A DNA stretch of 64,000 nt from an uncultured delta proteobacterium (GCA_963704165.1 CAVPHD010000004.1:1-64000); one strand, 5' to 3'; numbered from the stretch's first letter, positions 11-32,230 are shown. The notes: generated by a model from the letters alone, not told the origin. Numbers and translations: made by a program.

Positions 11-637
11 GTGCGCGTAGCCGGGTTCAGATCCGACGGATTCCGCCGCGTCGCCCTCGCGGCCGCTGCCTCGTTGTTCTGCGCGTACGGCTACGGTCAG
101 GAGCAGGATCCGTTCATCGGGGCCTGGAAGCTCGTGGCGTCGGAGGCGAATCAGGGACGCTGGGACCAGGCGACCGCGGCGGCTCCGGACCTCGACGCCG
201 GACTCGCGGAGGTCGAGGACAGCTTCGGTTGGCCGCTTCGCGCCGAGATCCGATCCGCGCTCGTCTCCCACGACGCGCGCACGCTCGCCCGCGCGCTGAC
301 GGTCGCCGCCTGTGGTGCCGTTCTCCGGAAGCTCGACGCGTCCGCGCGCGAGGGATTGACCGACTACTACCGGGCGAAGTACCGGATCGAGGCGGCGCGC
401 ACGACCTACTCCGAGCTGCTCGCGCCACCTTTGCGACACCAGGACGCGACACGTCACGGGCATTCGCACGACGCCGTCTGGGACGGGCTCGCGCGAGCGC
501 AGACGGCCCTCGGTCGCCCCGGCTTTCTCGGCCGCGGGCAGGTCGCGCCCGATCGAGCCGCCTACTCGGCTGCAGAACGCGAGATCGAATCCGCACTGCG
601 AGCCGCCTTTCCGTTCGTACCGGAGGTGAAGCGATGA
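11..637 (+). CDS. Secreted helical hypothetical protein
   Basis: GGAG RBS before GTG; signal-peptide-like N-terminus; stop overlaps next start (ATGA). Confidence 0.65.
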   Translation: MRVAGFRSDGFRRVALAAAASLFCAYGYGQEQDPFIGAWKLVASEANQGRWDQATAAAPDLDAGLAEVEDSFGWPLRAEIRSALVSHDARTLARALTVAACGAVLRKLDASAREGLTDYYRAKYRIEAARTTYSELLAPPLRHQDATRHGHSHDAVWDGLARAQTALGRPGFLGRGQVAPDRAAYSAAEREIESALRAAFPFVPEVKR

Positions 638-1977
638 GAAGTCGAGCCGTCATGGGAATTCTCGCGCTGGTTCTGACGTGCGATGTCGCGCACGCAGAGA
701 GCGAGGTCGAGACGCTTCGAACTCGCGTGCGCGAGCTCGAGGAACGCCAGCAGCGGACCGACGCGGAACTCGATCAGCTTCGCGCGCTCCTCGTCGGCGA
801 GGCGCGCGAGCAGCGCACTCCCGATGTCAGCCAGGCTCCGCCCGGCGACGATATCGACCTCGGCGTGCTCGCGGGCCGGAGCGAAGGGTCGATCCTGAGC
901 CGGATCGATTTCCACGGCCACCTCGCCGTCGACTACGTCGGTATCGGGAAGCCCGGTGCCGCCAGCGTCGATACGCGCGTCGAGTCCGACGCGGAGCTCT
1001 TGCCGCGCAGCTCCTTCACCGCCTCGGACCTGACGTTCTTCGTCGGTCTGCCGATCTACGAGAACGTCTACGCAGCGACCGAGGTCGAGTACGAGAGCGG
1101 TGGCGACGAGATCTCGCTCGACCAGGCATTCGTACAGTGGGATCTCCTGCCGGACGAGCGCCTCTCCCTGCGCGGAGGCAAGTTCTACTTTCCGTTCGGC
1201 ATCGACCGTTTCCATCAGAACGCGCCGACCAACCCGCTCGTCGATCGGCCCGCACCGTTCCTGTTCGTGATTCCGGAGACGTACTCCGAGACCGGAATCG
1301 AGTTGCTCGGCGAGGCCGCGCTCTCGCATTCGCCCGAGGTGGTCGCCGAGTACGAGTTCGCACTGGTGAATGGGCTGGGCGAGCCTGCGTACTCGTCAGC
1401 GCGCGTCGCGCGACAGAACCGGGACGGGAACTCCGGGAAGTCCTACGGCGGCCGGCTCGGGTTGGTCTTCGATCGCTGGCTGCGCGTCGGTGCGTCGGGT
1501 CTCGCAGGGAACTACGACCGGACGAACGACGACGGTCTCTGGGCCGCGGGTGTCGATCTGCGCGCACAGTGGAATGCCTTCACGCTGCGAAGTGAGTGGG
1601 TGGTCTCGCGCCTGGAAAACCCCGACGCCGTCTCCGCCGACGGGACACCATGTCCGAAGCTGCCGTGCCCGGCGCTCGAACCCCTGACGCCGCTCGGTGG
1701 CAGCTTCCGCCGCCGCGGTTGGTACGTGGAAGGGGTCTGGCGGCCGCGACCGGTCTTCGCGGATTTCCTCGGCCCGCTCGACTACGTCCTCCGCTACGAC
1801 GTTCTCGACGACGATCAAGGTCTGGAGGCGACGCTCGACGGCCAGCGTTTCGCCGCCGGGATCGTCTTCCATCCCTATGAGCACTTCTCTCTGAAAGCCG
1901 AGTACGAGATCGTCGACGACGAATCGAGCGAGGTCGACAACAACGGCTTCCTGTTCCAGGGCGCGGTGGATTGGTGA
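634..1977 (+). CDS. Outer-membrane beta-barrel porin (OprO/OprP-like) with N-terminal coiled coil
   Basis: ATG 634 after GGAGG; signal peptide, coiled coil (LRTRVRELEERQ), amphipathic strands, GKFYFPFG, terminal aromatic residue (GAVDW). Confidence 0.75.
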   Translation: MRSRAVMGILALVLTCDVAHAESEVETLRTRVRELEERQQRTDAELDQLRALLVGEAREQRTPDVSQAPPGDDIDLGVLAGRSEGSILSRIDFHGHLAVDYVGIGKPGAASVDTRVESDAELLPRSSFTASDLTFFVGLPIYENVYAATEVEYESGGDEISLDQAFVQWDLLPDERLSLRGGKFYFPFGIDRFHQNAPTNPLVDRPAPFLFVIPETYSETGIELLGEAALSHSPEVVAEYEFALVNGLGEPAYSSARVARQNRDGNSGKSYGGRLGLVFDRWLRVGASGLAGNYDRTNDDGLWAAGVDLRAQWNAFTLRSEWVVSRLENPDAVSADGTPCPKLPCPALEPLTPLGGSFRRRGWYVEGVWRPRPVFADFLGPLDYVLRYDVLDDDQGLEATLDGQRFAAGIVFHPYEHFSLKAEYEIVDDESSEVDNNGFLFQGAVDW

Positions 1978-3350
1978 GCGACGTCGACGTAGCGGTGCTC
2001 GGCGCCGGCCCCGCGGGTCTCGCCTGCGCCTGGGAGCTCGCGACTCACGGCGCCCGGGTCACCTTGCTCGAAGCCGCGCCTCGGGTCGGCGGTCTCGCCG
2101 CTACGTTCGAGCGCGACGGCTACCGTTTCGACCAGGGTGGCCATCGCTTTCTCACGCGATGGCCCGAGCTGCTCGAACGGGTGAAGAAACTCCTCGGCGA
2201 AGAGCTCCTCGTCGTCGACCGACACAGCGTGGTCGTGAGCGAAGGACGGCGCTTCGGGTATCCACTCGAGCTCGCTGACCTGTTGCGAAACGTGCCGCTG
2301 CGTCGAGGCCTCCACTACGTCGCGAGCTGGGCGGGCGAGCGATTGCGTCGTCCGCTGCGCGACGAGACGAGCTTCGAGGGCTGGATGATTCGGCGCTTCG
2401 GCCCTGCGCTCTACGCCGAGTTCTTCGCGCCCTACTCGCGCAAGCTCTGGGGCATCGAGCCGTCGCGTCTCTCCTCCGACTGGGCGCCGCAGCGGATCGG
2501 AAGCTTCGACCTCGGCTTCGCCCTGAAGGGGCTCGTCGGGCTCGCGCGTTCACGCCCGCGCACGATCGCGCGCCGCTTTCTGTATCCCCGGTTGGGTATG
2601 GGGCAGCTCTTCGACGCGATCGCCGACGAGGTCGCGCGCCTGGGCGGAACGATCCGGCTCGGCGCGCCCGTCGAGTCGCTCGCGCTCGAGTGCGGGCGCG
2701 TGCGCGCCGCGCGCACAGCAGCGGGAGACATCGAGGCGCGCGCCTTCGTCTCGACGCTGCCACTGCCCGCGCTCGCGGGCTTTCTGGGTCTCGAGACCCG
2801 ACTGCGGTTTCGCGGTCTGCGATTCCTGAACGTGATGCTCGACGAACCCGCGAATCTCGGCAGCACCTGGGCGTATCTCTCCGACGGCGCCGGCCTGGTG
2901 TCGCGCGTACAGGAGCCGGCGCGGCGCAGTCCGTTCATGGTTCCACCCGGTCGTGGCTCTCTCCAGCTCGAGCTGCCCGGCTCGCCCGGCGACGAGGTCT
3001 TCGAGCTCTCTGACGACGATCTCTTCGCACGCGCCTGGCCCGAGGTCGCGCGCGCGGGGCTCGTGATCCCGGCCGGTGTCACCGGCTCGTTCACGCTCCG
3101 CGCGGCGTGTGCCTATCCGGTCCTCGAGCGTTCGACACGCACCGAGCTGGTGCGCGCGCACGAAGCGGCTTCGCGGGTCGCCAACCTCGAGATCGCGGGG
3201 CGCCAGGGGCGATTCTCGTACGTCTTCGCCGATCGGGCGATGGAGGAGGGGATCGCCGTCGCGCGGCGAATCGTAGGAGTTCCCGAGGGATTGCCCGATC
3301 CGGGTCGCGAAGAGCCGTGTCCGACCGAAGCGACCTCGCTGCTCGGCTGA
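1974..3350 (+). CDS. FAD-dependent oxidoreductase (HemY/amine oxidase/UDP-galactopyranose mutase-like)
   Basis: GAGPAGL Rossmann motif, VGGLA, FDQGGHRF, C-terminal GRQGRFSY; GTGA overlap. Confidence 0.85.
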   Translation: MSDVDVAVLGAGPAGLACAWELATHGARVTLLEAAPRVGGLAATFERDGYRFDQGGHRFLTRWPELLERVKKLLGEELLVVDRHSVVVSEGRRFGYPLELADLLRNVPLRRGLHYVASWAGERLRRPLRDETSFEGWMIRRFGPALYAEFFAPYSRKLWGIEPSRLSSDWAPQRIGSFDLGFALKGLVGLARSRPRTIARRFLYPRLGMGQLFDAIADEVARLGGTIRLGAPVESLALECGRVRAARTAAGDIEARAFVSTLPLPALAGFLGLETRLRFRGLRFLNVMLDEPANLGSTWAYLSDGAGLVSRVQEPARRSPFMVPPGRGSLQLELPGSPGDEVFELSDDDLFARAWPEVARAGLVIPAGVTGSFTLRAACAYPVLERSTRTELVRAHEAASRVANLEIAGRQGRFSYVFADRAMEEGIAVARRIVGVPEGLPDPGREEPCPTEATSLLG

Positions 3351-4636
3351 GCTCGCCAGCCGCCATCGGCTGGGCGGGCGGACTCCTGCTTCCGGTCCTG
3401 CTCGCACTCGGCCTGCCGTCCGAGCTCGACGGACAGGACAGCGTGAACTTCGCGCTCGGGCTCCTGGATTTCGATCCGGTGCTCGAGCAGCCGCACTTCC
3501 CCGGGTACCCGGTCTACATCGCCCTGTGTCGCTTGCTCGCGTGGTCGGGATGCTCTCACGCGGTCGCGCTGGCGCTTCCGGGCGTGCTCGCGAGCGCCGT
3601 GCTGATCCCGGCCCTGATCGTCTTCGCGCGGCGCCTCGAGGTGCCCGCGCGGGTTCTCCCGATCGCGGCATTCCTCGTCGTCGCCCAGCCACTCGTCCTT
3701 TTCGAGGGCCCGCGCCCGATGCCGGATCTGCTCGCGACCGCCTGTGTCTGGGCGTCCCTCGCGCTCGTCGCGAGCGAGCGGAGCGTCGCGGCCGGGGTCG
3801 TTCTCGGGCTCACGCTCGGGGTGCGGATCGACCTCGCGCCGCTCGCCTGCGTCGTCTTCGCGTTGCGACCGGGCGCGCGGGTCCACTTCGCCTCGGGGCT
3901 CGCGATCGGAATCGCGCTCTGGCTTCCCGCGTTCGCCGTCGCAATTCCGCCGGACGGATTCGCGAGAGGCGCTCGCTTCGCGATCGGACACTTCTCGGTG
4001 TGGGGGAGCACGGCTCTCTCGGGAGCGGGTCTTGCCCTCGCCGGAAGAGGGCTCCTGCTCGGGCTCGCCGCGCCGGTCCTGCCGCTGTTCGCACTCGTCG
4101 GCGGGTGGCACGCGCCCGCGAAGCTGCGCCGCGTTCTCGGCTTCGCACTCGGTCCCTACGCCGTCTGGGTTCTCGTCGGGCAGAACCTCGCCAGCGCGCG
4201 GCACTTCCTGCCGCTCGCCCCGGCGCTCGCGATCCTCGCCGCCTGCGCTCTCGCGGCGATCGAACGCCGTACCCTCCGGACGTCCGGCTACCTCGCGGTC
4301 GCGTGCGGCGCGATCGCAGTGTCGACCTTCGCGCCGCCCTCCCATCCGAACGGCCGGGAGCTCTTCGAGCGGGTCCGGGGTGCCTGTCCGGACTGCGAAG
4401 CGATCTTCGCCGGCCCGAGCGAGCGCGTGCTCGAGTACTACGCTCCCGCTGGCGCGCCGCTCTACCGAAGAAGCAGCATCGACGAGGTTCGTCGGGATCT
4501 CCGGGCCTGGCCCGAGCTGACCGGTTCGGTCGGAATCACGAGCGAGCTCTCGGGGAGCGCCGGGCTCGGCGCGGAGAAGGTGGAGGTCGCGTCGGAGCTC
4601 GGCCTGTACCGGATCGATGCCGCCGCGCTACGGTAG
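3317..4636 (+). CDS. Polytopic membrane protein, GT-C (PMT/ArnT/DUF2723-like) glycosyltransferase candidate
   Basis: DSVNFALG...QPHFPGYPVY loop, many TM segments, RHFLP motif; start estimated. Confidence 0.6.
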   Translation: MSDRSDLAARLSSPAAIGWAGGLLLPVLLALGLPSELDGQDSVNFALGLLDFDPVLEQPHFPGYPVYIALCRLLAWSGCSHAVALALPGVLASAVLIPALIVFARRLEVPARVLPIAAFLVVAQPLVLFEGPRPMPDLLATACVWASLALVASERSVAAGVVLGLTLGVRIDLAPLACVVFALRPGARVHFASGLAIGIALWLPAFAVAIPPDGFARGARFAIGHFSVWGSTALSGAGLALAGRGLLLGLAAPVLPLFALVGGWHAPAKLRRVLGFALGPYAVWVLVGQNLASARHFLPLAPALAILAACALAAIERRTLRTSGYLAVACGAIAVSTFAPPSHPNGRELFERVRGACPDCEAIFAGPSERVLEYYAPAGAPLYRRSSIDEVRRDLRAWPELTGSVGITSELSGSAGLGAEKVEVASELGLYRIDAAALR

Positions 4637-4641
4637 GCGCC

Positions 4642-6429
4642 TTGAGGTCCTTCAACCTCCTGCGTTACTTCACGGTCGCGAGCCTGGTCGTGATCGCGGC
4701 GCTCGCGCTCGCCACGGCGTGGGTCTTCTCGCGCAATCTCGAGAACAGCCTGACCGAGGAAGCCGGTCTGTACGCCGAAGAGATGGCCGCTTCGCTCAAT
4801 CGCGCGATCTTCCGCGACTTCCTCGATCCACTCGCACGCGAAGGTCGCGACGTGGATCTGGAGGACCCGACTCAGCGGGGCGATCTCGCGCGGATCGTCG
4901 AGGCCCATACCCGCGGTCTGCGCATACTCACCGTCAACGTCTTCGATCAGAGCGGGACGATCATCTTCAGCACGAACGGCGACTACATCGGCTACCGCTC
5001 GATCGACAACCCCGGACTCACACAGGCGCTCCAGGGTCAGACGACCTGGTTCCTGAAGCGCGCCGAGCTCGAGCTGGACCCGATCCGTCCGGGGCACGAT
5101 CTGCTCGAGTCGTACTCCCCGCTTCACGAGCTCGATGTCGAATCGGAGGAGTTCGGCCCGATCATCGGCGTGCTCGAGCTCTATCAGGACGCACGCCCGA
5201 TCACGGCCAAGATCGCGCAGGGTGAGCGCGAGATCGTACTACTCACGTCCGGACTGATGGGGGTGCTGTTCGTGGCGCTCTTCGAGATCGTGCGACGCGG
5301 ACACGTTCGCATCGCGCGGCTCTCGGAAGCACTGGCGCTCTCGAATCGCGAGCTCGAGGCCCGCGTCATCGCCCGCACGCGCGAGATCGAGCATGCGCGC
5401 GAGCGGCTCGAGTCGCTCTTCGACGGCATCACCGACGGCATCTCCGTGATCGAGCACGACTTCCGCGTGTCGGAATGGAATTCGGGGATCGAGCGGCTCT
5501 TCGGCGCTCCGCAGGTCGCAGGGCGGGATCTTGTGTCACGAGCGCTACGCGAAACGCGCGACGCCGTGCCTCGGTTGCCCGGCACGCAGGACGATGGCGA
5601 GCGGCGTCCAGGCGCAGCGTCGGTATCGCTGGCCCGCGCCCGATGGAACGCTGCGCGAGGTGGAGGTCGTCACGTTCCCCTACACATCGCGCGAGAACGA
5701 ACGGGCCGTGATCGAGGTCGTGCGCGACGTTTCGGAGCGCGGCGAGCTGGAGCGGCAGCTGGTGCAGAGTGAGAGCCTGGCGTCGCTCGGAGAGCTCGCG
5801 GCGGGTGTGGCGCACGAGATCCGGAATCCGATCGGCATGATCCGAAGCTCCGCTCAGCTCCTCGAGGGGTCGACCGGGTTGTCGGAGCACGAGCGCACCT
5901 TGCTCGGGGTGATCGAGACCGAGGCGACACGCGTCGCGGGTACGATCACCGAGTTCGTCGGCTTTGCCGCGCCGACGAAGCCGTCGATCTCGTCGTGCGA
6001 TGTCGAGCCGATGCTGGATCGTGCGCGCACGATGTTGGCGGCCGAGGCCGCGCGTCGCGGCATGCGGATCGACGTGGACGTCGAGCCGGACCTGCCGCGC
6101 GTGCTCGTCGATCCGGAGCTCCTGCACCGCGTGCTCGCGAACCTGGTCCTGAACGCGCTACAGGTCCAGAGCCGCGGCGGCTGGGTCGGGCTCTCGGCCC
6201 GCAGCGCCGGCCCCGGCGAGGTGGCCTTGCACGTCGCGGATCACGGACCGGGGATTCCCGAGGGCGATCTCGAGCGCATCTTCCAGCCGTTCTTCAGCCG
6301 CCGTGCCGGTGGCACCGGTCTCGGGCTCTCGATCGCGCAACGGATCGTCAGCGCGATCGGTGGACGCATCTCCGTCGAGAGCGGTCCGAACGGCAGCGAT
6401 TTCTCCCTCGTGTTTCCAGAGGCGGAGCC

Positions 6430-6433
<4 letters not shown>
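4642..6433 (+). CDS. Sensor histidine kinase (periplasmic sensor, PAS, HisKA, HATPase); one frameshift near 5520-5531
   Basis: Two TMs and PAS start in one frame; PCLGCP PAS half, H-box AHEIRNP, NLVLNA, DHGPG, GTGLGL in the next frame. Confidence 0.85.
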
Positions 6434-7806
<1,373 letters not shown>

Positions 7807-7871
7807 ACCCGACGCATTCCGCATCGACCCCGAGGGGATAGGAGTCCGCGCGCGCCGGTCCACGGGCGCTC

Positions 7872-7890
7872 GATTCAGGAATTCGAACTC
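7872..7890 (+). promoter_or_regulatory. Putative activator binding site, copy 1 (GATTCAGGAATTCGAACTC)
   Basis: 15/19 identical to 13475-13493; same 40-bp offset to the -24 GG. Confidence 0.65.
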
Positions 7891-7928
7891 CTGCCCGGTC
7901 GCCGGCGGCGGAGCGGCTCGATCGCTCG

Positions 7929-7944
7929 CGGCACGCGCCTTGCT
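7929..7944 (+). promoter_or_regulatory. Sigma54 -24/-12 promoter (CGGCACGCGCCTTGCT)
   Basis: GG-N10-GC spacing; matches TGGCACG-N4-TTGC; upstream of GGAGG RBS and ATG 7984. Confidence 0.8.
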
Positions 7945-7983
7945 CCTCCGCTCCTGGCGAAATCGCTGGGACGGAGGTTCTGC

Positions 7984-8379: not shown

Positions 8380-8771
8380 GCCGCCTGCGATCGAGTGCCG
8401 TTCTCGCCGCGCTCTGCGCCGTGCTCTCGGCCGGCTGCTTCAACGTCAACCACCGACTCCCGCCGCACGCCTACTTCGGGACGCTGCCGGCATCGCCCGG
8501 AGAAACCTCGACGCGGTTCGAGCGCAGCGCGATGAAGAACTGGCTCCTGGCCGGTCTGTTTCCGTGGTCCCGCTTCAGCAGCGACAATCTGCTCGCGGAG
8601 AGCGCCTCGGGCGTGATTCGCTACGAGAACCTCGCGGTCGAGACCCGATTCAGCGTGATCGACACCATCATCTGGCTCGTTCCCGGGCAGTTCTACGGCT
8701 ACTACGTGTGGGCCCCTCGACACGTCTCGGTGTCGGGGGACGAGGTCCGGAACGGGGTGGCGCGGCGTTGA
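8376..8771 (+). CDS. Small lipoprotein (Bor-like), probable distant paralog of the upstream gene
   Basis: Lipobox SAGC; ATGA overlap; WLLAGLFP and YVWAPRHVSVSG segments. Confidence 0.7.
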   Translation: MSRLRSSAVLAALCAVLSAGCFNVNHRLPPHAYFGTLPASPGETSTRFERSAMKNWLLAGLFPWSRFSSDNLLAESASGVIRYENLAVETRFSVIDTIIWLVPGQFYGYYVWAPRHVSVSGDEVRNGVARR

Positions 8772-10000: not shown

Positions 10001-10470
10001 CCCGCTCGGCGCTCGCGCTCTCGATCATCGTGCTCTTGTCCCGGCTCGCGACCGCGCAGTCGGAAGCGGCTGCGGCACGGGTCTGGGAGATCAACGGCAT
10101 CCGCCTCGAGCCCGCCCAGATCGAGCGTCTCGCCGACGACATGGCCGGCCGAACGGTCGATGCCGTGCGGGAGAAGATCCCGGCGATCGCGCTTCGCGAC
10201 GGGCAGGCGGAGCAGATGCGCGCCGTCTACCGCGGCGTCGCGCTCGACGTGTTCTCCGACGTCGTCCGCGAGGTCGCGCGAGACGATCGGACCGACGCGG
10301 AAAAGGAGGCGCGCGTGCGCGAGCTCGTGCTCGCCGGCCAGGGTCGCAGTCACGCCGAGCTCGCGTCGGTTCTCGACGCGCGGCAGCTCGGCCTCTACGC
10401 GGCCTGGGAAGACCGACAGGTCGAGGCCTTCAAGAGCCGGCGCTGGAACGACCGCAAGCGGCGGAGGTGA
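9997..10470 (+). CDS. Secreted helical hypothetical protein
   Basis: GTGA overlap; signal peptide; coding-like composition. Confidence 0.6.
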   Translation: MTRSALALSIIVLLSRLATAQSEAAAARVWEINGIRLEPAQIERLADDMAGRTVDAVREKIPAIALRDGQAEQMRAVYRGVALDVFSDVVREVARDDRTDAEKEARVRELVLAGQGRSHAELASVLDARQLGLYAAWEDRQVEAFKSRRWNDRKRRR

Positions 10471-10473
10471 GCG

Positions 10474-13439: not shown

Positions 13440-13474
13440 GTTGCGCGACCGGGACGCAATCGTCCGAGCGCCCT

Positions 13475-13493
13475 GATTCGAAGATTCGAACTC
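13475..13493 (+). promoter_or_regulatory. Putative activator binding site, copy 2 (GATTCGAAGATTCGAACTC)
   Basis: Matches 7872-7890 with the same offset to the -24 element. Confidence 0.65.
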
Positions 13494-13531
13494 GCGCGGC
13501 TTCACGCGCCGCGCTTCGCGAATCCCGGGCG

Positions 13532-13547
13532 TGGCATGCGCCTTGCT
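13532..13547 (+). promoter_or_regulatory. Sigma54 -24/-12 promoter (TGGCATGCGCCTTGCT)
   Basis: GG-N10-GC; upstream of AAAGGAG RBS and ATG 13580. Confidence 0.85.
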
Positions 13548-13579
13548 CCGCTCGCCCCCACGAATTCGAAAGGAGCGCC

Positions 13580-14902
13580 ATGCAGATCGTCTCCACGCTG
13601 AGGAAACTCACGGGTCTCGCCGCGACACAGGCGAGGCTCGGCCTGTCGGCGCGAGAGCTCGAGCGCGTGCAGCTGCGCAAGCTCCAGCAGGTTCTGCGCC
13701 GGGCCTGGGATCGCGTTCCGCTCTACCGGGAGAAGTTCGAGAAGGCGAACGTGCGGCCCGCGGACCTCGAGACGCTCGCCGATCTCGTCCGTTTCCCGAT
13801 CACCGAGAAGGACGAAGTCCGCGACAGCTTTCCGCGCGGCTGCGTCGCCGCCGGGACCGATCTGGCGAGCTGTCGGATCCAGCAGACCTCCGGCTCGACC
13901 GGGCAGTGCATGGAGATCGCGCTCGACCAGCGAAGCGACGACATGCGCACGCTCTTCACGCAGCGGGTGTACGGAATGCAGGGATTCCGCTTCTGGCGCC
14001 GCATGGCGTACCTGTTCCCGTACGAGCTGCCGCTGCGCAAGGGCAATGCGGGTCTGTACCGGAATCGCTGGTTCTCGACCAAGCTCGAGCCCGAGGCGAT
14101 TCTCGCGGGGCTGCGCGCCTGGCGCCCACACCTGCTCGCGGCGACGCCGAGCGATCTGCTCGAGCTCTGCGACGGGCTCCGTGGAGACCTGCGCGATCTC
14201 GGGCTCGAGGCGATCTGCGTGCACTCCGAGCCGATGTCCCGTGACGAGCGGGAGCACGTCGCTTCGCGCTTCGGCTGCCGCATCGCGACGAATTACTACT
14301 GCAACGAGGTCTGGGCGATCGCCGCGGAGTGCCAGAGCGGCGCGCTTCACCAGTTCCCGGACAACGTCGTGCTCGAGATCGTGGACGACCTCGGTCGTCC
14401 GGTGCCGCGCGGCGAGCGCGGCCACGTGCTCGTGACGTCGCTGCACAACTACGTGCAGCCGTTCATTCGCTACCGACTCGGCGACATCGCCGCCTGGGAG
14501 CCCGACAGCGGCCCGTGCGGGTGCGGGCTCGACCTTCCTCGCGTGCGCGCGCTCGAGGGCCGGGACGACGACTACATCGAGTACCCCGACGGGCGCCGGA
14601 TGCACCCCGCGCGAATCACCGTCGCGGTGAAGAGCCCGTGCTTCGATCATCCGGGCGCGCAGATCTTCCGCGACTACCGGATCACACAGGACGGTCCGGC
14701 GCACGTGACGGTGCAGATCGTTCCCGGACGCGACGCGAGTTTCCTCCGAGGCTGCGCCGAAGCGGGGCGAGCGAATCTGTCACGCCTTCTCGGCGCGCCG
14801 TTCCAGGTCGATCTCGAGATCCACACGTCGCTGCCTCGCGGCAGCGGTGGAAAGCGCAAGATCGTCGAGCGTCGTCCCGCTCCGCGAGTCACGGCATCGT
14901 GA
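13580..14902 (+). CDS. Phenylacetate-CoA ligase (PaaK/CapK)-family adenylating enzyme
   Basis: QTSGSTG P-loop, FPITEKDEVR, PFIRYRLGD, EGRDDD, GKRK. Confidence 0.85.
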   Translation: MQIVSTLRKLTGLAATQARLGLSARELERVQLRKLQQVLRRAWDRVPLYREKFEKANVRPADLETLADLVRFPITEKDEVRDSFPRGCVAAGTDLASCRIQQTSGSTGQCMEIALDQRSDDMRTLFTQRVYGMQGFRFWRRMAYLFPYELPLRKGNAGLYRNRWFSTKLEPEAILAGLRAWRPHLLAATPSDLLELCDGLRGDLRDLGLEAICVHSEPMSRDEREHVASRFGCRIATNYYCNEVWAIAAECQSGALHQFPDNVVLEIVDDLGRPVPRGERGHVLVTSLHNYVQPFIRYRLGDIAAWEPDSGPCGCGLDLPRVRALEGRDDDYIEYPDGRRMHPARITVAVKSPCFDHPGAQIFRDYRITQDGPAHVTVQIVPGRDASFLRGCAEAGRANLSRLLGAPFQVDLEIHTSLPRGSGGKRKIVERRPAPRVTAS

Positions 14903-16647
14903 GCGGAGCCATCGGGCACCGATCTCCGGTCTCTTGCGCAGCCGCCCGCCGCGATGGACGCGTGATCGCGAGTGGCGGATACGATCGGCGCATCCTGCTC
15001 TGGGACGCCACGAGCGCTTCGGTGATCCGGGAGCTCGTCGGTCACACCGGGCTCGTGAACGCGGTCGACTGGGCGCCCGATGGACGGCTGCTCGCCTCCG
15101 CGTCGAGCGACCGGACCGCGCGGCTCTGGGATGCGAACACGGGAGTCGAGCTCGCGGCGCTCCGCGGCCACGACGACGACGTGAATTCCGTCCGCGTCTC
15201 GCCCGACGGACACCGGATCGCGACCGCGTCCTTCGACGGCAGCGTGCGCGTCTTCACGCGCTCGGGTGACTGCCTGCTCGTCGCTGCGCATCACGCGACC
15301 GACGTGAACTCGGTCGCCTGGTTTCCCGACGGGCGGCGTCTGGCCGCCGCCTCGGACGACGGCACGGTCTCGATCTTCGACTCGGGAACCGGACGCATCC
15401 GTCGCGTCCTGGCGGGGCACACCGACTGGGTCGACCACGTCGCCGTGCACCCGGCGGGCGTGCTCGTCGCGTCGGCCTCGCTCGACGGCAGCGTCGGGAT
15501 CTGGAACGCGGCGAGCGGCGCGCGCGTGGCGACGCTGGCGGACGCCACCTGCGTGGTGAAGGCCGTCGCGTTCTCGCCGGATGGCACGAGGCTCGCTTCG
15601 AGTTCGTACGACGGACGCGTGCGGGTCTACGACACCGGCGACTTCCGACGACTCGAGGAGCGATCCGCGCGGGGTCTCTGGAACCGCACGCTCTCGTGGA
15701 TGGATCGCGAGCTGGTCACGGGCAGCTTCGGTGGCGGCCCGGTCCTGCTCGGCGAGCGAGGCGAACGGCGCTTCGGCCGCTCGACGACCTCGGGTTTGAA
15801 CGGCTTCGCGCTCTCGCCCGATGTCCCGCGAGCCGTCGTCTGCTGCGATGACGGAAGGCTCTACGAGCTCGATCTCGAACGCCGTCGGGTGCTGCGTGTT
15901 CTCGGTGCGCACGACGGCGCCGTGCTCTGCGCGTCGTACTCGCCCGACGGGCGCCTCGTCGCGAGTGGCTCGTGGGACCGCACGGTCCGGATCTGGGATG
16001 TCGAGGACGGCCGTGCCGTGGCGGAGATCGGCGGATTCGGTCAGCCGATCAACGCCCTGGTCTGGAACCGGGGTGGTGCGGAGCTCTTCCTCGGCGGCTT
16101 CAACGGCGAGGTCACGATCCTCGATCCCGAGAGCGGCGAGCTGACCCGGGTCGGCACGCACGTCGGTTCGGTGAAGGGTCTCGCGCGTTCGGGCGAACGC
16201 GTGGCCTCGGTCGGGCGCGACGGCTGCGTGCAGCTCCTCGGGCCCAACCTGTCCACGCGCTTTCGGGCGGGTGAGTCGATCCTGAACGGTGTCGCTCTCT
16301 CCGAGAAGGGCGACCGTATCGCGACCGTTTCGCGACGCAACGGCGTCGAGCTCTGGAGCGAGGCCGGAGAGCGGCTCGCGAGTTTCCGCGAGCACGCCGG
16401 CTCGGCCAAGGCGGTGGCGTTCTCGCGCGACGAGGCGCTGATCGCGGCGGGCTACTACGACGGCTCACTCGCGCTTTGGAGCCCCGAAACCGGCGAAGCC
16501 CGCGTCGAACGCGTCTCCGACGCGAGCATCTCGCAGGTCGGTTTCGGAAGGCGCGAGCTCCTGGTCTCGACCTGGGACGAGCGCGGCACTCTCGTCTTCG
16601 TCGATCCATGCAAGGGTGTCATCGCGCGAGTCTCGGTGGCTGCATGA
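14899..16647 (+). CDS. WD40-repeat protein (582 aa, probably a double beta-propeller)
   Basis: Repeated GH...V..V..SPDG..LAS.S.D.T.R.WD units along the whole length. Confidence 0.9.
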   Translation: MSGAIGHRSPVSCAAARRDGRVIASGGYDRRILLWDATSASVIRELVGHTGLVNAVDWAPDGRLLASASSDRTARLWDANTGVELAALRGHDDDVNSVRVSPDGHRIATASFDGSVRVFTRSGDCLLVAAHHATDVNSVAWFPDGRRLAAASDDGTVSIFDSGTGRIRRVLAGHTDWVDHVAVHPAGVLVASASLDGSVGIWNAASGARVATLADATCVVKAVAFSPDGTRLASSSYDGRVRVYDTGDFRRLEERSARGLWNRTLSWMDRELVTGSFGGGPVLLGERGERRFGRSTTSGLNGFALSPDVPRAVVCCDDGRLYELDLERRRVLRVLGAHDGAVLCASYSPDGRLVASGSWDRTVRIWDVEDGRAVAEIGGFGQPINALVWNRGGAELFLGGFNGEVTILDPESGELTRVGTHVGSVKGLARSGERVASVGRDGCVQLLGPNLSTRFRAGESILNGVALSEKGDRIATVSRRNGVELWSEAGERLASFREHAGSAKAVAFSRDEALIAAGYYDGSLALWSPETGEARVERVSDASISQVGFGRRELLVSTWDERGTLVFVDPCKGVIARVSVAA

Positions 16648-17630
16648 AGCCCGACGCCCTGCGAGCGCTCGCATTCCGTTTTCGCGAGGCGCGCGCTCTC
16701 TTCGCCGGCGTCGAGCTCGGCGTCTTCGAGGCGCTCGGAAACGAATCGAAGGACGCGGACCAGCTCGCGGGCGTGCTCTCGCTCGACACACGCGCCACCG
16801 GAATTCTGCTCGAGGCGCTCGCCGCGCTCGGCGTCCTGGTTCGCGATGGAACGCGATACGCGATTCCCGCCGAGCTTCGGGGAACGCTGGTACCGGGGAG
16901 CGCCGAGTACGCGGGGAATCTCTTCCTTCACGACCTGTGGCACTGGACGAGCTGGGGACGGCTCGACTCGGTGCTGCGAGACGGGCAGGCCTGGACCCGC
17001 CGGGATGGAGACCCGCACCTCGCCAACCCCGAAGTGCTCCGTCGCTTCCTGCCGAACTACACGCTCGCGATGGAGCAGAGCGAGGGAGGCGCGAGCGAGA
17101 GGCTCGCGCAGCGCATCGCCGCGCTCGCACCTTCGCGCGTGCTCGATCTCGGTGGCGGCAGCGGGGGGCTGCTCATCGCGCTTCTCGGGATCCTGCCCGA
17201 GGCGCATGGGACGCTCGTCGAGCACGGCTTCTCGCTCGGGCGCGCAGCGGATCTCGTGGCGGGCTCGTCGGCGAGAGAGCGGATCACGCTTCTCGCGATG
17301 GACTTCGAGAAGGAGGAGATCCCGATCGGCCACGATCTCGTCGTGCTCTCGCGCGTGCTGATGGGGATGACGCCGGAGCGAGCGCGCTCGCTCGTCGGTC
17401 GAGCCGCGCTCGCGCTCGAATGCGGTGGCGCGCTGGTCATTCACGAATTCGACGCGACGACCCGCGTCGGCGCGTTGCTCTCCCTCGACATGCTGCTCCA
17501 CACCGGCGGCGCCTCGCACCCGCGAGCGGAGCTCGAGTCCTGGCTCGCGGGCTGCGGACTCGAGCTCGAGTCGTCGCGTCGCCTGCTTCCGTACACGCGC
17601 GCCTGGATCGCGAGGAAGGCTGCGCGATGA
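16644..17630 (+). CDS. SAM-dependent O-methyltransferase with dimerisation domain
   Basis: AGVELGVFEAL dimerisation domain; VLDLGGGSG motif I. Confidence 0.85.
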   Translation: MKPDALRALAFRFREARALFAGVELGVFEALGNESKDADQLAGVLSLDTRATGILLEALAALGVLVRDGTRYAIPAELRGTLVPGSAEYAGNLFLHDLWHWTSWGRLDSVLRDGQAWTRRDGDPHLANPEVLRRFLPNYTLAMEQSEGGASERLAQRIAALAPSRVLDLGGGSGGLLIALLGILPEAHGTLVEHGFSLGRAADLVAGSSARERITLLAMDFEKEEIPIGHDLVVLSRVLMGMTPERARSLVGRAALALECGGALVIHEFDATTRVGALLSLDMLLHTGGASHPRAELESWLAGCGLELESSRRLLPYTRAWIARKAAR

Positions 17631-18343
17631 GACTTCGGGATCGATGTGCCCTGGTCACCGGCGCGGGGAAGGGGCTCGGCCGCGCGATCGTCGAGGGCTT
17701 CGTCGCGGAGGGAGCGCGCGTTCTCGCGCTCGCGCGCACCGCGAGCGAGCTGGCCCGGCTCGAGGACGCCCACCCCGGCCGGGTCGTCGGGGCGGTGCTC
17801 GACGTGACTTCGCGAGATCAGGTCGACGGACTCCCGGATCTCGTCGACAAGTCGCTCGGTCGGCTCGATCTTCTGGTCAACAACGCGGGCGTCTGGATGG
17901 AGCGCGAGTTCCTCGCGTACACGCGCGCGGAGTGGGATCTCACGATCGCGACGAACCTCACCGCGATCTTCGACGTCACGCAGTCACTCCTTCCGACGCT
18001 GCTGCGCTCGGACTCGGCGCGCATCATCAACATCGCCTCCATCGATGGCGAGGTTGGCTTCCAGAAGCTCGTCGCCCAATGCGCCTCGAAGTTCGGCGTA
18101 GTCGGCTTCACGAAGGCGCTCGCGAAGGAGCTCTGGAACGCGCCGATCACCGTGAACGCGATCTGCCCGGCCGAGGTGGACAAGTCGGTGGCGTTCAGCG
18201 CGACGCCGGCACGCGGGCCCGCTCCGGAGCGGGCGCTTCCGTGGGACGTCGCGCGCGCGGCGATCTATCTCGCGAGCGACGAGGGGGTGCGCGTGAACGG
18301 TGCCTGCCTCGACGTGCACGGCATCGGATTCCTCGCGTCGTGA
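17627..18343 (+). CDS. SDR-family oxidoreductase with atypical active site (QxxxK)
   Basis: TGAGKGLG, NNAG, NIAS; QCASK where YxxxK is expected. Confidence 0.85.
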   Translation: MRLRDRCALVTGAGKGLGRAIVEGFVAEGARVLALARTASELARLEDAHPGRVVGAVLDVTSRDQVDGLPDLVDKSLGRLDLLVNNAGVWMEREFLAYTRAEWDLTIATNLTAIFDVTQSLLPTLLRSDSARIINIASIDGEVGFQKLVAQCASKFGVVGFTKALAKELWNAPITVNAICPAEVDKSVAFSATPARGPAPERALPWDVARAAIYLASDEGVRVNGACLDVHGIGFLAS

Positions 18344-20178
18344 GTCGAATTCGGCCGGTGCTTCCGTGGCTCGTCGCCGCGGTGATCCTCGCTCTTCTCT
18401 TCGCGCGCGTGGATCTAGAGGCGACGCTCGCCGCGCTCGGGACCGCGGACCTGTACGCGTACACGCCGATCGCCGTCGTGTTCACGGTTCTCTGGCTCGC
18501 GCTCGACGCGTTCGTGCTGCGCGCGGTGTTCGCGCGCGTGGGGGCGACTCTGTCGTTCCGCGAGATGGTGCTGGCGCGCGCCGCGACGTATCCGTGGATG
18601 GTGCTCTCGTTCGATCTGTCGAACGCCGCGCTCGTCGCGGGGTTGCGTCGAAGCAGCGGCGTTCCGGTCGCGAGTCTCGCCGCGGCGATGCTCGCGCACT
18701 ACGCCTGCGACCTCGTCGCGCTGGCCACGGTCGCGGCCGTCGGCGCGGTCGCTTCGGAGGGCGCGTTCGCCGCGGTGCTCCGGCCGATGCTGATCGGGCT
18801 CGCGCTCGTCGCCGCGGGGATTCTCGTCTCGGCCCGAATGGGCGTCGCGAGGTTCGGCCGCGGCAGGCTCGCCGACGCGGTGCGCGCATTTCGCCCGCGG
18901 GATCTCGCGCGCGTCGTCGCGTTGCGCTGGCTCTTCTACGCGAGCTTCGCGCTCTTCGTCTGGCTCACGCTGCCGTGCTTCGCGCTCGACGTGCCGTTCC
19001 TCGCCGTGCTCGCCCGGATGCCGGTGGTGCAGAGCATCGCCGCACTGCCGATCTCGCCCGGTGGCATCGGGACCGCGCAGGCGGCGATGGTCGCGCTATT
19101 CTCGGGCTTCGGTCCCGCGTCGAGCTGGCTTGCGTATTCACTCGTCTACAGCCTGACCCTCGTTCTGCTGCGGCTGCCGATCGGCTTCGCGGCCTGGGGC
19201 GGACGCGCGAGCTCGGCGGGAGAAAGGAAGACCCTGCAGCTTCTCGTGCTCGCGCTCGTTTTCGTCGCTGGCTGCAGCGTCCCGGTTCCGTTCGCGGACG
19301 ACCTGCTCTTCAGCCTCGATCGGCCGCAGCTCCCGGTTTCCGAGGACTGCCGCCGCTGTCACGGCGAGGTGGTCGAGGAATGGTCCGACTCGCCGCACGC
19401 GGGAGCCTGGACGTCTCCGCGTTTCGCGGCGCTGACCGCGGATCACGCGGCCGAGGCATGTCTCGGGTGTCACGCCCCCGCGCCGATCGGACGAGAGGGC
19501 GAGATCGCCCTGCGCTCGGATCACCGCGAGGAGGGAGTCACGTGCATCAGCTGTCATCTGATGCCCGATTCCGCTCCGCTGACGATGCGCGGCCCGCACG
19601 CGCGCACGTCTCCCGTCGAGGTTCACCCGATCGAGGTCGATCCGCTCTTCACGAAGCCCGACCTCTGCGGCACCTGTCACGCGGAGGTGCTCGAGCAATT
19701 CCGCGCCGCGCCCGCTCCGGCGGACGGCTCGGAGAAGGAGATCTGCCAGGGCTGTCACATGCCGGCCGTTCGCCGCACGATCGAGAGCTACGACACGTCT
19801 CGGCCGTACTCGCGCGTGCTGGTCGCGCTCGGCAAGCCGGTGGCGGGCCGCCGGCACCGCTTCGGCGTTCCGCTCGAGCCGTGGGAGGACATCGACCTCG
19901 ACAGCCGACGCGAGGCGGACCGTTGGATCGTCCGCGTTCGCAACAAGCTGCCGCACGCGCTTCCGACCGGAGCGTTCGGGCAGCGCGAGGTGCGGCTGCG
20001 CGCGGGCGACCAGGTGATTCGCCTGCGCGCCGATCTCGACCAGGCGATCCCCGCCGGAGAGGAGCGGGGCTTCGAGCTCGCGGCCGGCGCGAGCGCCGAG
20101 GTCGTGCTCGAACGGCGCAATCCGCGCACCGGCGCATACGAGCGGCTGGCTCCGGCACCCCCGGAGGCCGAGAAGTGA
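18340..20178 (+). CDS. LPG-synthase-TM/flippase-like (UPF0104) domain fused to a pentaheme c-type cytochrome
   Basis: LPISPGGIGTAQA motif and TMs, then FVAGC and five CxxCH (CRRCH, CLGCH, CISCH, CGTCH, CQGCH) in one frame. Confidence 0.75.
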   Translation: MSRIRPVLPWLVAAVILALLFARVDLEATLAALGTADLYAYTPIAVVFTVLWLALDAFVLRAVFARVGATLSFREMVLARAATYPWMVLSFDLSNAALVAGLRRSSGVPVASLAAAMLAHYACDLVALATVAAVGAVASEGAFAAVLRPMLIGLALVAAGILVSARMGVARFGRGRLADAVRAFRPRDLARVVALRWLFYASFALFVWLTLPCFALDVPFLAVLARMPVVQSIAALPISPGGIGTAQAAMVALFSGFGPASSWLAYSLVYSLTLVLLRLPIGFAAWGGRASSAGERKTLQLLVLALVFVAGCSVPVPFADDLLFSLDRPQLPVSEDCRRCHGEVVEEWSDSPHAGAWTSPRFAALTADHAAEACLGCHAPAPIGREGEIALRSDHREEGVTCISCHLMPDSAPLTMRGPHARTSPVEVHPIEVDPLFTKPDLCGTCHAEVLEQFRAAPAPADGSEKEICQGCHMPAVRRTIESYDTSRPYSRVLVALGKPVAGRRHRFGVPLEPWEDIDLDSRREADRWIVRVRNKLPHALPTGAFGQREVRLRAGDQVIRLRADLDQAIPAGEERGFELAAGASAEVVLERRNPRTGAYERLAPAPPEAEK

Positions 20179-20813
20179 CGCTTCGGCGCGTGCCTCGCTT
20201 TGGCCGGACCACGCGCTGGTTCCACTGGACCTTCGCGCTCTCGTTTCTCGGCCTCGCGTTCAGCGGTGGCCTGCTGCTCGTTCGCGCGGAGCTCGGCATC
20301 GACGCCGCGAACATCGCGTCGCTGATCGACGCCCACAAGATCATCGCGGTCGTCTTTCTCACCGCGCCGTGGTTGATCGGGCTGTCCGGTGATCGAAGCG
20401 CGTGGCTCCGCGACCTGTCGGAGACGGCGCGGCTCCGACGAGACGATCTGGTCTGGCTCGTCCGACAGCCGCTCGCGATGCTCGGCAAGGCGGAGCTTCC
20501 GCCCCAGGACAAGCTCAACGCCGGTCAGAAGCTGAACGCTCTCGCGGTCGCCGCGATCTCGGGCGCGATGGTCGTCACCGGGCTTCACATGTGGCAGGAG
20601 CCGGGGTCGTTTCTCGCGTTGGTCGTCCACGTGATCGGCTTTCTCGCCTGGATTCCCGCCTTCTGTGTCCACCTGTTCATGGCGTTGATCAACCCGAGCA
20701 CACGTCCGGCTCTGCCCGCGATGATTCGGGGCGACGTCGATCGTGACTGGGCCGCGCACCACCACGCGCGCTGGCTCGAGTCGGTCGAGCAGGAAGAGCG
20801 GGGGCCGAGGTGA
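20175..20813 (+). CDS. Membrane cytochrome b (FdnI-like)
   Basis: RWFHW, DKLNAGQKL, heme-ligand His residues in TMs, W..HHH..W tail. Confidence 0.85.
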   Translation: MTLRRVPRFGRTTRWFHWTFALSFLGLAFSGGLLLVRAELGIDAANIASLIDAHKIIAVVFLTAPWLIGLSGDRSAWLRDLSETARLRRDDLVWLVRQPLAMLGKAELPPQDKLNAGQKLNALAVAAISGAMVVTGLHMWQEPGSFLALVVHVIGFLAWIPAFCVHLFMALINPSTRPALPAMIRGDVDRDWAAHHHARWLESVEQEERGPR

Positions 20814-22219
20814 GACTCCGTCTCGTCCTGCTCGGCGTGATCGTGCTCGGGCCCGCGATCTTCGCGCTCCTGCTGCTGCGTTCGGGTGTGCGAAGCGATG
20901 CCGCGGCGGTCGAGCCGAAGCCACGCGCGGAGGCATCCGAACCGGGAATCGTCGCGACGGTCGATCGATGGCTCGGTGTCGCACTCGACCCCGGACCGCT
21001 CGCGAAGGCGCACGCGTCGCTCGTCGGTGTCGGAAGCTGTCTCGACTGCCACGGAAGCGCGAGCCAGGTGATCGACGCGCGTTGCATCGCCTGCCACGAG
21101 GAGATCGGAGTTCGGGCGCAGCGGAAGATCGGCTGGCACGGGACGTTCGCCGAGCCGTGCCACAGCTGTCACGCGGAACACCGCGGCGAGGACGCCGAGC
21201 TGATCGTGCTCGACCGCGACGCGTTCCAGCACGACCTCTCGCGTTTTCCGCTTCGCGGCGGTCACGTCGGCGCGAAGTGCGAGGACTGCCATCTTTCGAT
21301 TCCCCTCACCGGCTCCGAGGCCGAGGTCTTCCACTTCCAGGGGATACCGTCCGCCTCCTGCACGGGATGTCACGTCGATCCGCACGCGGGCGGAAGACGC
21401 ACGGACGAGAGCCTCGGCGCGATCCGACAGATCGCTCTAGACGAGCCCGACCCCCCGCCCGCGAAGCGCTCCGCCGAGCATCCGATCGCGGGCCGCGACT
21501 GCGCGAGCTGCCATCCGGAGTCTGGATGGCGCGCTGCACAGCTTCGGCGTCGGGGCTTCGATCACGAAGCGGACACGCTCTACGCGCTTCGAGGTGCACA
21601 TGCTTCGGTCAGCTGTCAGAGCTGCCATACCGAGAAGCAGCGGAAGCTCGAGCAGGAGTCGGGCGAGGCGCCGGGACGTGCCGCAGACGCCGACTGCGCG
21701 ACCTGCCACGAGGATCCGCACGAGGGTGAAATGCGCTCAGCGAACGGCTGCCGGTCCTGTCATTCCGAAGCCGGGTGGCGGAAGGGGTTCGACCACGACA
21801 GAGATACGCGCTTTCCGCTCGACGATCTGCACGCGCGCGTGGACTGCGCTGCTTGTCACCCGGACCAGCGCTTTCGAGCCCTGGGTCGGGAGTGCAGGGA
21901 CTGCCACGAAGATGCCGATCAGCTCCTCGTGGGTCGGTTCGCGGACGCGCACTTCGATCCGGACGTGCACGCGGAAGGCGTCCTCTGCACGGACTGTCAC
22001 GGTCCGACTCGCGCCTCGAACCGACCCGCCTCGCTGGCGAAGCGCTGCGCGGACTGCCACACGCCGGAGTTCGCGGAGCTGCTCGCGACCTGGAGCTCGG
22101 AGCTCGACGCGCTCGCCCGCCGGACGGCGCTCGATCCCGCGCTGGCCGAACGCCTGCGGCGAAGTGGCGCACACAATTTTGTGTTCGCTCGATCGCGCCT
22201 GGGCGAGCGAGCTCGCTGA
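20810..22219 (+). CDS. Membrane-anchored multiheme cytochrome c, 13 CxxCH
   Basis: N-terminal TM; 13 CxxCH counted; repeated F.H...F/YxL...H...CxxCH units. Confidence 0.9.
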   Translation: MRLRLVLLGVIVLGPAIFALLLLRSGVRSDAAAVEPKPRAEASEPGIVATVDRWLGVALDPGPLAKAHASLVGVGSCLDCHGSASQVIDARCIACHEEIGVRAQRKIGWHGTFAEPCHSCHAEHRGEDAELIVLDRDAFQHDLSRFPLRGGHVGAKCEDCHLSIPLTGSEAEVFHFQGIPSASCTGCHVDPHAGGRRTDESLGAIRQIALDEPDPPPAKRSAEHPIAGRDCASCHPESGWRAAQLRRRGFDHEADTLYALRGAHASVSCQSCHTEKQRKLEQESGEAPGRAADADCATCHEDPHEGEMRSANGCRSCHSEAGWRKGFDHDRDTRFPLDDLHARVDCAACHPDQRFRALGRECRDCHEDADQLLVGRFADAHFDPDVHAEGVLCTDCHGPTRASNRPASLAKRCADCHTPEFAELLATWSSELDALARRTALDPALAERLRRSGAHNFVFARSRLGERAR

Positions 22220-25662: not shown

Positions 25663-25672
25663 GCGGCGACGA

Positions 25673-27244: not shown

Positions 27245-27258
27245 GGCTTCGGTGTCTC

Positions 27259-29951: not shown

Positions 29952-29953
29952 GA

Positions 29954-30415: not shown

Positions 30416-30428
30416 GTATTCGTCCTCG

Positions 30429-31106: not shown

Positions 31107-31114
31107 CGGCGAAT

Positions 31115-32223: not shown

Positions 32224-32230
32224 CCGCGAC

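Follow-up and report, generated by a model that had tools for sequence, protein, structure and literature searches.

A divergent ToxC-family protein and a ToxD-family protein share a conserved gene cluster with a multiheme cytochrome chain in uncultured Myxococcota

Some bacteria make their own electron shuttles, among them the flavins that Shewanella uses with Mtr and the phenazines of Pseudomonas. Toxoflavin, encoded by toxABCDE and toxFGHI, is known from Burkholderia glumae, Pseudomonas protegens Pf-5 and a plasmid of Yersinia pseudotuberculosis IP31758; a passage of PMC1959361 calls the cluster on a Yersinia plasmid toxoflavin-like. As set out in passages of PMC13755311 and PMC13684122, ribitylamino-uracil comes from ToxB and ToxE, glycine addition and closure of the triazine are proposed for ToxC (the chemistry of the N-N bond being only proposed), ToxD cleaves the ribityl chain and ToxA methylates. 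According to a title cited in PMC13755311, a toxB mutant is restored by ribA, and a passage of PMC10708333 has toxoflavin carry electrons from reduced nicotinamide adenine dinucleotide (NADH) to oxygen. Here we analyse a cluster of 19 genes (g01 to g19) at positions 11 to 22,219 of a 64,000-nucleotide stretch of DNA from an uncultured delta proteobacterium (CAVPHD010000004.1:1-64000; hereafter the window), whose relatives carry protein names of Myxococcales or Myxococcota. The cluster likely makes and exports a redox-active heterocycle, which its cytochromes would recharge from the quinone pool.

Like the toxoflavin cluster, the locus has a ToxC-family WD40 protein, a ToxD-family enzyme, an S-adenosylmethionine (SAM) methyltransferase and an exporter. 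Unlike it, the locus has no toxB (ribA), toxE (ribD) or toxA orthologue, and it adds a second WD40 protein (lost in the window), a PaaK-like ligase, a short-chain dehydrogenase/reductase (SDR) without the catalytic Tyr, a flippase and a cytochrome chain. Its transporter is of the MMPL/HAE3 type and its control a sigma-54 two-component pair, not classical resistance-nodulation-division (RND) efflux of the ToxFGHI type with LysR. The core works like the toxoflavin pathway, while the locus falls outside the tox clusters on toxA, toxB/E, efflux and regulation. A first-pass annotation of this DNA, made from the sequence alone, knew of no described cluster with this composition; that stands for the whole, but the biosynthetic core proves related to toxoflavin ToxC and ToxD. 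The same kinship gives a concrete basis to its guess of a redox-active compound.

The ToxD-like gene lies just beyond the window (Table 1). The FGE-like profile of the cluster matches ToxD (PDB 7SPQ) at E 1.8e-90, with the next family at 9e-34, and the protein of the host genome matches it at E 6e-63, with the next match at 2e-19. True FGE or EgtB identity was rejected, as the scores are far weaker than for ToxD. The ToxD-type RRHG motif is kept in 11 of 11 aligned sequences and is common to the ToxD-like protein and five plasmid proteins that are 38-44% identical to it. Five plasmid loci with a ToxD-like gene carry ribA and/or ribD together with a WD40 or propeller gene, and three of them also a methyltransferase.

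For g14, a clean test of ToxC kinship used a profile from nine cluster-type WD40 proteins only, and 41 diagnostic columns that 95% or more of 81 cluster-type proteins keep, against 30% or fewer of generic WD40 proteins. Five tox-locus WD40 proteins, identified by locus context and not by name, keep 22-26 of the 41 columns; 36 long generic WD40 proteins keep 1-10, the second WD40 protein of intact relatives (WD40-B) 3-7 and twelve low-identity database matches 23-26, only the tox-locus counts being independent because the columns were picked as rare in generic WD40 proteins. Three of the five tox-locus proteins align to the g14 family end to end and in register, 22 mostly polar residues are common to cluster and tox-locus proteins at matching positions, and a FastTree tree sets both apart from WD40-B and generic WD40 proteins at 100. 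By these sequence comparisons g14 is a divergent member of the ToxC family, and it is probably an enzyme, not a scaffold. The WD40 protein that the first-pass annotation placed in unit 3 is there, but its ToxC kinship had gone unseen.

Several observations weigh against an azapteridine product. g14 is only 25-30% identical to tox-locus WD40 proteins, best-domain bit scores overlap (107-275 versus 130-248 for generic WD40 proteins), and no protein named ToxC that would allow direct comparison is among the 120 of 840 matches listed. No ribA, ribD or toxA orthologue occurs in any cluster locus searched, unlike the tox-type plasmid loci, all five of which have ribA or ribD nearby, and ToxD-like genes without a g14 match occur in two genomes, G521 and G522 (genomes, contigs and loci carry G, C and L numbers; the host is G000). 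The ToxA-position methyltransferase of an Azospirillum locus has no match to g15 or anywhere in the host genome. The ToxC and ToxD homologues could have changed substrate, giving a non-azapteridine compound or a modified lipid; the missing rib genes and the low identity of g14 favour this, as do 19 of the 41 cluster-specific columns that are not common to all four close tox-locus WD40 proteins, and a paralogous WD40 pair in a nitrite-reductase island. We consider such a change very unlikely, given the 22 residues held in register with tox-locus proteins, the invariant RRHG motif and the co-occurrence of both families, as in tox loci. Across all the readings that assume one, an azapteridine is the probable product.

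The paralogous pair, one ToxC-family gene and one WD40-B gene, lies outside the window at C4:222001-242000 of the host (L122), its ToxC-like gene frameshifted in the assembly. Its neighbours are a Crp/Fnr gene and a NarI-like/4Fe-4S gene, and the island around them also has genes of cytochrome d1-domain, NirDL-like, radical SAM, copper nitrite reductase-like, SCO and hemerythrin proteins; the same pair is found in G007, G022 and G039. A family proposed to form N-N bonds is noteworthy beside a likely source of nitric oxide.

The scheme that we tentatively prefer has a tailored azapteridine exported to act as an electron shuttle, with menaquinol recharging it. Housekeeping RibA and RibD, whose genes lie on C9 and C3, would supply the ribitylamino-uracil precursor. 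As a member of its family, g14 might then close the triazine ring and form the N-N bond, an activity that is a proposal for ToxC itself, and the upstream ToxD-like enzyme would, by homology, remove the ribityl chain. Tailoring would fall to g15, which may methylate, to g13, which may adenylate a carboxylic acid, either for attachment to the ring or in place of glycine, and to the Tyr-less SDR g16, which could perform a hydride transfer needing no acid catalyst. The flippase, the MMPL protein, g09-g11 and g07/g08 would bring the product to the envelope, where the porin would let it through. To judge by the cofactor motifs, cytochrome b would draw electrons from menaquinol and hand them to the 13-heme and 5-heme cytochromes and so to the product, and the motifs of kinase and regulator suggest that these turn on units 2 and 3 via sigma-54. 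If so, the system would resemble the Shewanella and Pseudomonas shuttles in recharging a secreted redox heterocycle with electrons of the quinone pool, and differ from them in its ring system and in having synthesis, export and reductase chain in one cluster.

The cluster is conserved and co-regulated. That it is one system, as first supposed, is borne out by a gene order that recurs in other genomes: the SDR profile matches 10 of the 225 genomes of the class, in two gene orders, while the pentaheme profile matches 13 and the FGE-like (ToxD-like) profile 12. Beyond the class the range rests on a sample of 401 genomes of the phylum, in which the six genomes matched by the ligase profile all belong to the host class; ligase homologues number 94 at E <=1e-60, with identity of at least 52% throughout. 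In a GTDB scan with the SDR profile, five of the best 80 loci listed are cluster loci and the others generic SDRs. Type I, the order of the window, occurs in G010, G003, G013 and G020, and in G015 without unit 1 and the hemes; g03 was seen in type I loci only, and g04 has no match in G039, G368, G529 or G017. Type II (G418, G419 and L131) starts with the pentaheme, cytochrome b and 13-heme genes, g09-g11, MMPL and WD40-B, followed by the ligase, g14, FGE-like, methyltransferase, SDR and flippase genes and usually g07/g08. The pentaheme, cytochrome b, SDR and methyltransferase trees, which are unrooted and include related genomes that are not independent, all have a deep split (100/99-100) between type I and type II. 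At least one further cluster gene accompanies 12 of 13 metagenome loci, the remaining one being just 1.5 kb long. Within the genus the distribution is patchy (3 of 12 genomes), and G007 carries a deletion derivative at the same chromosomal site (C8:53617-53859, L174) in which nothing is left of g01-g16 but the final 47 residues of the SDR, standing between the ToxD-like gene and the flippase. Recombination within the G020 cluster (C111:46136-52686) is suggested because identity to the window differs between segments (63-76% from the SDR to the 13-heme gene, 50-68% for upstream genes), g09 is missing and a 336-residue gene is inserted before the SDR.

The heme proteins fit, by their motifs, an electron wire rather than an MccSep enzyme. 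g18 has the features of an FdnI-type quinone-linked cytochrome b, with four transmembrane (TM) segments and four His in 14 of 14 sequences, at a score below the formate dehydrogenase gamma cut-off (71.5 versus 115.85); g19 has one N-terminal TM segment and 13 hemes. The pentaheme lipoprotein has five extra His, four of them invariant and one nearly so, and matches Thermochromatium pentaheme c552 (5ZE8) at E 1.8e-7. Like MccSep/ExtKL and c552, it has five CxxCH motifs and a C-terminal beta domain. In passages of 10.1101/2025.11.18.688581, MccSep/ExtKL has heme-ligating Cys plus Sec/Cys; the 13 sequences of the cluster's protein, by contrast, conserve neither Cys nor Sec apart from the heme motifs and the lipobox, so an MccSep-type polysulfide/sulfur reductase was ruled out. 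The earlier view that a quinol-linked heme chain travels with the enzymes agrees with its presence in nine of ten SDR-bearing genomes, on the same contig in eight, with its retention in both gene orders and with the congruent deep splits of the trees. In G039 the chain, followed by a g09 homologue, lies at another contig end. The product as a replacement for menaquinone was ruled out, since menD is present in G000, G010, G013, G039 and G368; G020 and G529 gave no match to menD or to MqnA/D. Elsewhere in the host genome, at C4:395261-404408 (L124:7261-16408), paralogues of g19, 21-heme and 19-heme c7-type cytochromes, flank a ferredoxin/NAD(P)-flavin adenine dinucleotide (FAD) oxidoreductase.

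Some observations on the chain weigh against the shuttle scheme. It was not found in G015 (73% complete), is separable (it is kept in G007 after the loss of g01-g16), and is accompanied by no Mtr-type outer-membrane porin-cytochrome pair that we could identify. Four of the 13 pentaheme genomes have no SDR match: G007, G420, G425 and G392. In G425 (C75, L177:386-13688) the chain stands with mqnE-A-C-D, SCP2/UbiT, MMPL and a ligase matched best in the PDB by EhpF (E 1e-28), a protein linked to phenazine, and in G420 (C234, L176) with mqnE at the contig end, SCP2/UbiT, MMPL and a ligase; G392 is too fragmented, and has an EhpF-like ligase and MqnA/D elsewhere. This sister locus, of which we found no description in the open-licence literature, shares with the cluster the orthologues of three heme proteins (pentaheme protein, cytochrome b and c7-type cytochrome), an MMPL protein and an adenylating enzyme; a TPR gene and a response regulator are further shared features of the G425 copy. 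It differs in naphthoate (futalosine) genes in place of ToxC/ToxD, an MMPL protein only 31% identical to the cluster's and an EhpF-type ligase; EhpF-like genes of 33-35% identity also occur in five genomes of other classes in the 401-genome sample. The neighbouring mqn genes of G425 are the only MqnA/D matches of that genome, and no menD was found there, so the link may be a housekeeping one, which tells against reading the sister locus as a shuttle system.

An independent quinol-linked respiratory module, tied to the enzymes by a shared regulon or a mobile island and not acting on their product, would account for the four genomes without an SDR, for a chain that outlives most of the enzymes in G007 and for mqn neighbours that look like a housekeeping menaquinone pathway. 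It appears quite unlikely, because in the window chain and enzyme genes form a single transcription unit with a 4-nt overlap, and the chain survives a complete rearrangement with congruent deep tree splits and is accompanied in both contexts by an MMPL protein and an adenylating enzyme, though of different clades. A broader but doubtful idea is a modular chassis for shuttle respiration, made up of a porin, a two-component pair, an MMPL protein with a lipid carrier, an adenylating enzyme and a quinol-to-multiheme chain, into which different pathways for redox heterocycles plug, one for an azapteridine in this cluster and one for a naphthoate in G420 and G425.

The product might instead be a toxoflavin-like redox-cycling antibiotic against prey or competitors, exported by the MMPL module, with the heme chain protecting the producer or setting the redox state. 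The known role of ToxC/ToxD products matches this, and the patchy distribution and the deletion in G007 are typical of secondary metabolism. Known tox loci, however, use classical RND/MFS efflux, VOC-family genes and LysR or quorum control, not a 20-heme chain, and the same heme chain also accompanies menaquinone genes; we hold the antibiotic to be unlikely.

Among the tailoring enzymes of the proposed scheme, the ligase and the SDR are atypical members of their families. g13 is an ANL enzyme whose nearest solved structure is PaaK and which, like PaaK, NatL2 and AjiA1, has the ANL fold, the P-loop and the terminal Lys motifs. Unlike them it scores 129 bits against the PaaK family cut-off of 646, and its pocket motifs are changed to HSEP (92 of 94 homologues) and YYCNE (90 of 94); weak matches to F390-synthetase-type proteins were also seen. 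g15 groups with natural-product N/O-methyltransferases (family 2). In g16 the Ser-Tyr-Lys triad is broken: QCxxK is found in the window's protein and in those of 14 of 14 further cluster loci, five of which have Ala for Ser.

The export module that the first-pass annotation had described, an MMPL/HAE3 RND protein with a TPR protein, is present. It resembles BstABC and TatT of the TPAT system in combining an MMPL-type RND with a secreted TPR-fold protein. Unlike BstABC, it includes no recognised BstB-type periplasmic binding protein and no adjacent sterol genes among the 21 proteins scanned with Pfam and NCBIfam, g09 has an extra N-terminal beta domain, and g12 scores 35 bits against the cut-off of 1400 of the BstA-specific model. 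The g09 model (predicted local distance difference test 89.8) compares with the TPR domain of PTPIP51 (7cc7; Z 17.3, root-mean-square deviation (rmsd) 3.2, 217 residues aligned), which transfers lipids, with the TPAT protein (8g52; Z 16.8, rmsd 4.9, 227 aligned) and with the sterol transporter 7t1s (Z 16.3, rmsd 3.8, 220 aligned). A lipid-carrier role for g09 is weakened by a tie with the generic TPR protein 2pl2 (Z 16.1, rmsd 3.0, 194 aligned), OGT following at 15.1, and Foldseek ranked generic TPR proteins first. BstC works with an MMPL-family RND according to a passage of PMC10942540. g11, whose model folds confidently, stands directly before the MMPL gene wherever found, and in two remote homologues it is joined to an OmpA domain; the Atlas gave no usable match. 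An MlaA-like identity was rejected for it (best Z 9.0 over 83 residues; no Foldseek match at E 0.001).

These parts also bear on a different fate of the heterocycle, as a flavin-like cofactor or a decoration of the envelope that the heme chain would use in situ, with g13 activating it, LPG_synthase_TM flipping it and attachment to lipid or lipoproteins (by g04 in type I). A flippase in all complete loci, the F390-synthetase-type matches of g13, and an MMPL protein and TPR fold that suggest lipid-like cargo speak for it, as do a type III polyketide synthase (PKS) beside the core in G039 and FabF with an acyl carrier protein (ACP) beside it in G015. g04, however, was not found in G039, G368, G529 and G017, PKS and FabF each occur in a single genome, and the window's genome has no type III PKS match; this fate seems rather improbable to us. 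An aryl-polyene, flexirubin or alkylresorcinol cluster was rejected, as the window holds no ketosynthase or ACP and the type III PKS occurs in G039 only.

Sigma-54 control, predicted earlier for the whole, holds for units 2 and 3 but not for unit 1, which has no sigma-54 promoter and a conserved TTGACG element instead, nor for the second architecture, in which G418 has an OmpR-type pair. Both intergenic gaps (177 and 140 nt) carry a -24/-12 element with the motif GATTC-N4-ATTCGAA 58 bp upstream, a motif present at these two sites only in the whole genome. The joint pattern has two genome matches versus approximately 0.001 expected, an indicative figure since the pattern was defined post hoc from its two sites. 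Eight promoters from five genomes keep both elements at equal spacing; the unit 3 promoter is restricted to the genus, and the MMPL and ligase genes overlap in G013 and G020. g06 has GAFTGA and the receiver Asp D53 of a sigma-54 regulator, rpoN lies on C9, and g06 may bind the upstream motif.

The layout first described, 19 genes in one direction, mostly overlapping and in three units, is borne out by the junctions: 12 of the 18 overlap by 4 nt, one by 1 nt and one by 34 nt, and two are gaps of 3-5 nt, besides the two intergenic gaps. Its family labels agree with Pfam and NCBIfam, and 5 and 13 CxxCH motifs were counted in the pentaheme protein and g19, as claimed. Two genes needed correction. 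The flippase-like/pentaheme gene has both domains, but the fusion, a 612-residue open reading frame, is a local feature: G010, G003, G013, G020, G007, G017 and L127 have two separate genes, and in an alignment of the junction with G020 a sense codon takes the place of the stop and some bases are absent. WD40-B stands between flippase and pentaheme genes in G010, G003 and L127; intact relatives have 20 genes. The kinase is a sensor histidine kinase but is split by a frameshift near 5515-5530, across which the intact 596-residue G010 orthologue aligns in two frames; further genes of the G000 assembly are split as well, and the frameshift is probably an assembly error. The lipobox Cys of g07/g08 is invariant in 14 of 14 aligned sequences, and for g04 a PF11028 match appears in the G013 orthologue alone (E 0.008, below cut-off).

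Table 1. Genes and promoters of the cluster; positions are those of the window unless a contig is given
Feature	Position	Strand	Basis
ToxD-like gene (FGE-sulfatase domain), divergent, directly upstream of g01, outside the window	C5:298298-299245	-	ToxD match
g01, secreted helical protein, no known family	11..637	+	no Pfam/NCBIfam hit; Atlas: unnamed clusters only
g02, outer-membrane porin, OprO/P-like	634..1977	+	weak outer-membrane-protein beta-barrel; Porin_O_P above cut-off in G010 orthologue
g03, FAD oxidoreductase, PRK07208-like	1974..3350	+	354 bits versus cut-off 380
g04, polytopic GT-C-like protein (TMEM260-like, weak)	3317..4636	+	at least 7 TM segments
g05, sensor histidine kinase with PAS domain, frameshift-split	4642..6433	+	
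g06, sigma-54-dependent response regulator	6430..7806	+	D53; GAFTGA at 218
Unit 2 promoter, GATTC-N4-ATTCGAA 58 bp before -24/-12 (7929-7944)	7872..7944	+	
g07, small lipoprotein, paralogue of g08	7984-8379	+	lipobox Cys
g08, small lipoprotein, paralogue of g07	8376-8771	+	lipobox Cys
g09, secreted beta-domain and TPR protein	8768..10000	+	fold matches lipid-carrier TPRs (BstC, TatT, PTPIP51) and generic TPRs about equally
g10, secreted helical protein, no known family	9997..10470	+	Pfam/NCBIfam scans
g11, helical protein before MMPL gene	10474..11157	+	
g12, MMPL/HAE3 RND transporter, 12 TM	11157..13439	+	PF03176 above cut-off
Unit 3 promoter, same upstream motif 58 bp before -24/-12 (13532-13547)	13475..13547	+	
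g13, PaaK-like adenylating enzyme, discrete clade, altered acyl pocket	13580..14902	+	
g14, double WD40 propeller, ToxC family by sequence	14899..16647	+	
g15, SAM methyltransferase family 2 (RedM/MmcR/DnrK type), not a ToxA orthologue	16644..17630	+	
g16, atypical SDR, catalytic Tyr to Gln (QCxxK)	17627..18343	+	
g17, flippase-like LPG_synthase_TM (~18340-19210) fused in frame to pentaheme c-type lipoprotein (~19234-20178)	18340..20178	+	
g18, FdnI-like di-heme cytochrome b, 4 TM, four conserved His	20175..20813	+	
g19, membrane-anchored 13-heme c7-type cytochrome	20810..22219	+	

The window is the start of contig C4 in a 3.87-Mb, 84%-complete genome. It begins at the contig end, its positions 1-620 being identical to C5:299319-299938, and the cluster runs on upstream in C5. 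Past the shared stretch, C5:299939-308904 (L025:10939-19904) has a lower GC content (0.60-0.63) and frameshifted rpoB/rpoC, the rpoB being a second copy, 57% identical to the genome's own on C9; from the GC content and the second rpoB we take this end of C5 to be a chimeric join or foreign DNA. At C5:296591-298278 (L025:7591-9281), a paralogous gene pair with no Pfam hit is convergent with the ToxD-like gene; both are kinase-like by eye only, adjoin a nitrile hydratase-like operon and occur in the genus only.

Downstream, an AI-2E transporter gene (window 22277-23335) follows the cluster in the genus (G010, G003, G007 and L127), is absent from the loci of other genera and is probably a neighbour, not a member. 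At 23353-27250 the genes of a heavy-metal P-type ATPase and of an acyl-CoA synthetase are spread over several frames, likely by local indel errors; the G010 synthetase is intact. By eye from the translations, 27041-38903 holds steroid/lipid catabolism-type genes with a 1006-residue MMPL-like protein, and 58409-62061 a two-component pair with cytochrome b and diheme cytochrome-like genes. In G007, C32 (L020:557-13961) carries DUF1702, ASPIC/UnbV, an iterative PKS, a thioesterase and an MMPL-LolA fusion, a cassette that we take to be enediyne-type.

The Pfam and NCBIfam labels (WD40, FGE-sulfatase) leave this cluster type unflagged, and a search of the open-licence literature yielded nothing on the cluster or on azapteridines with multiheme chains. 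The 22 residues common to an 81-sequence divergent branch and the tox-locus proteins allow direct active-site tests of ToxC chemistry. If the modular chassis were real, this would be the first azapteridine that carries electrons in respiration and has a reductase chain of its own, and the tailored azapteridine itself would be one not yet described. Toxoflavin-type compounds are known as toxins; their pairing with a quinol-linked multiheme chain suggests that non-pathogenic environmental bacteria may put them to respiratory use.

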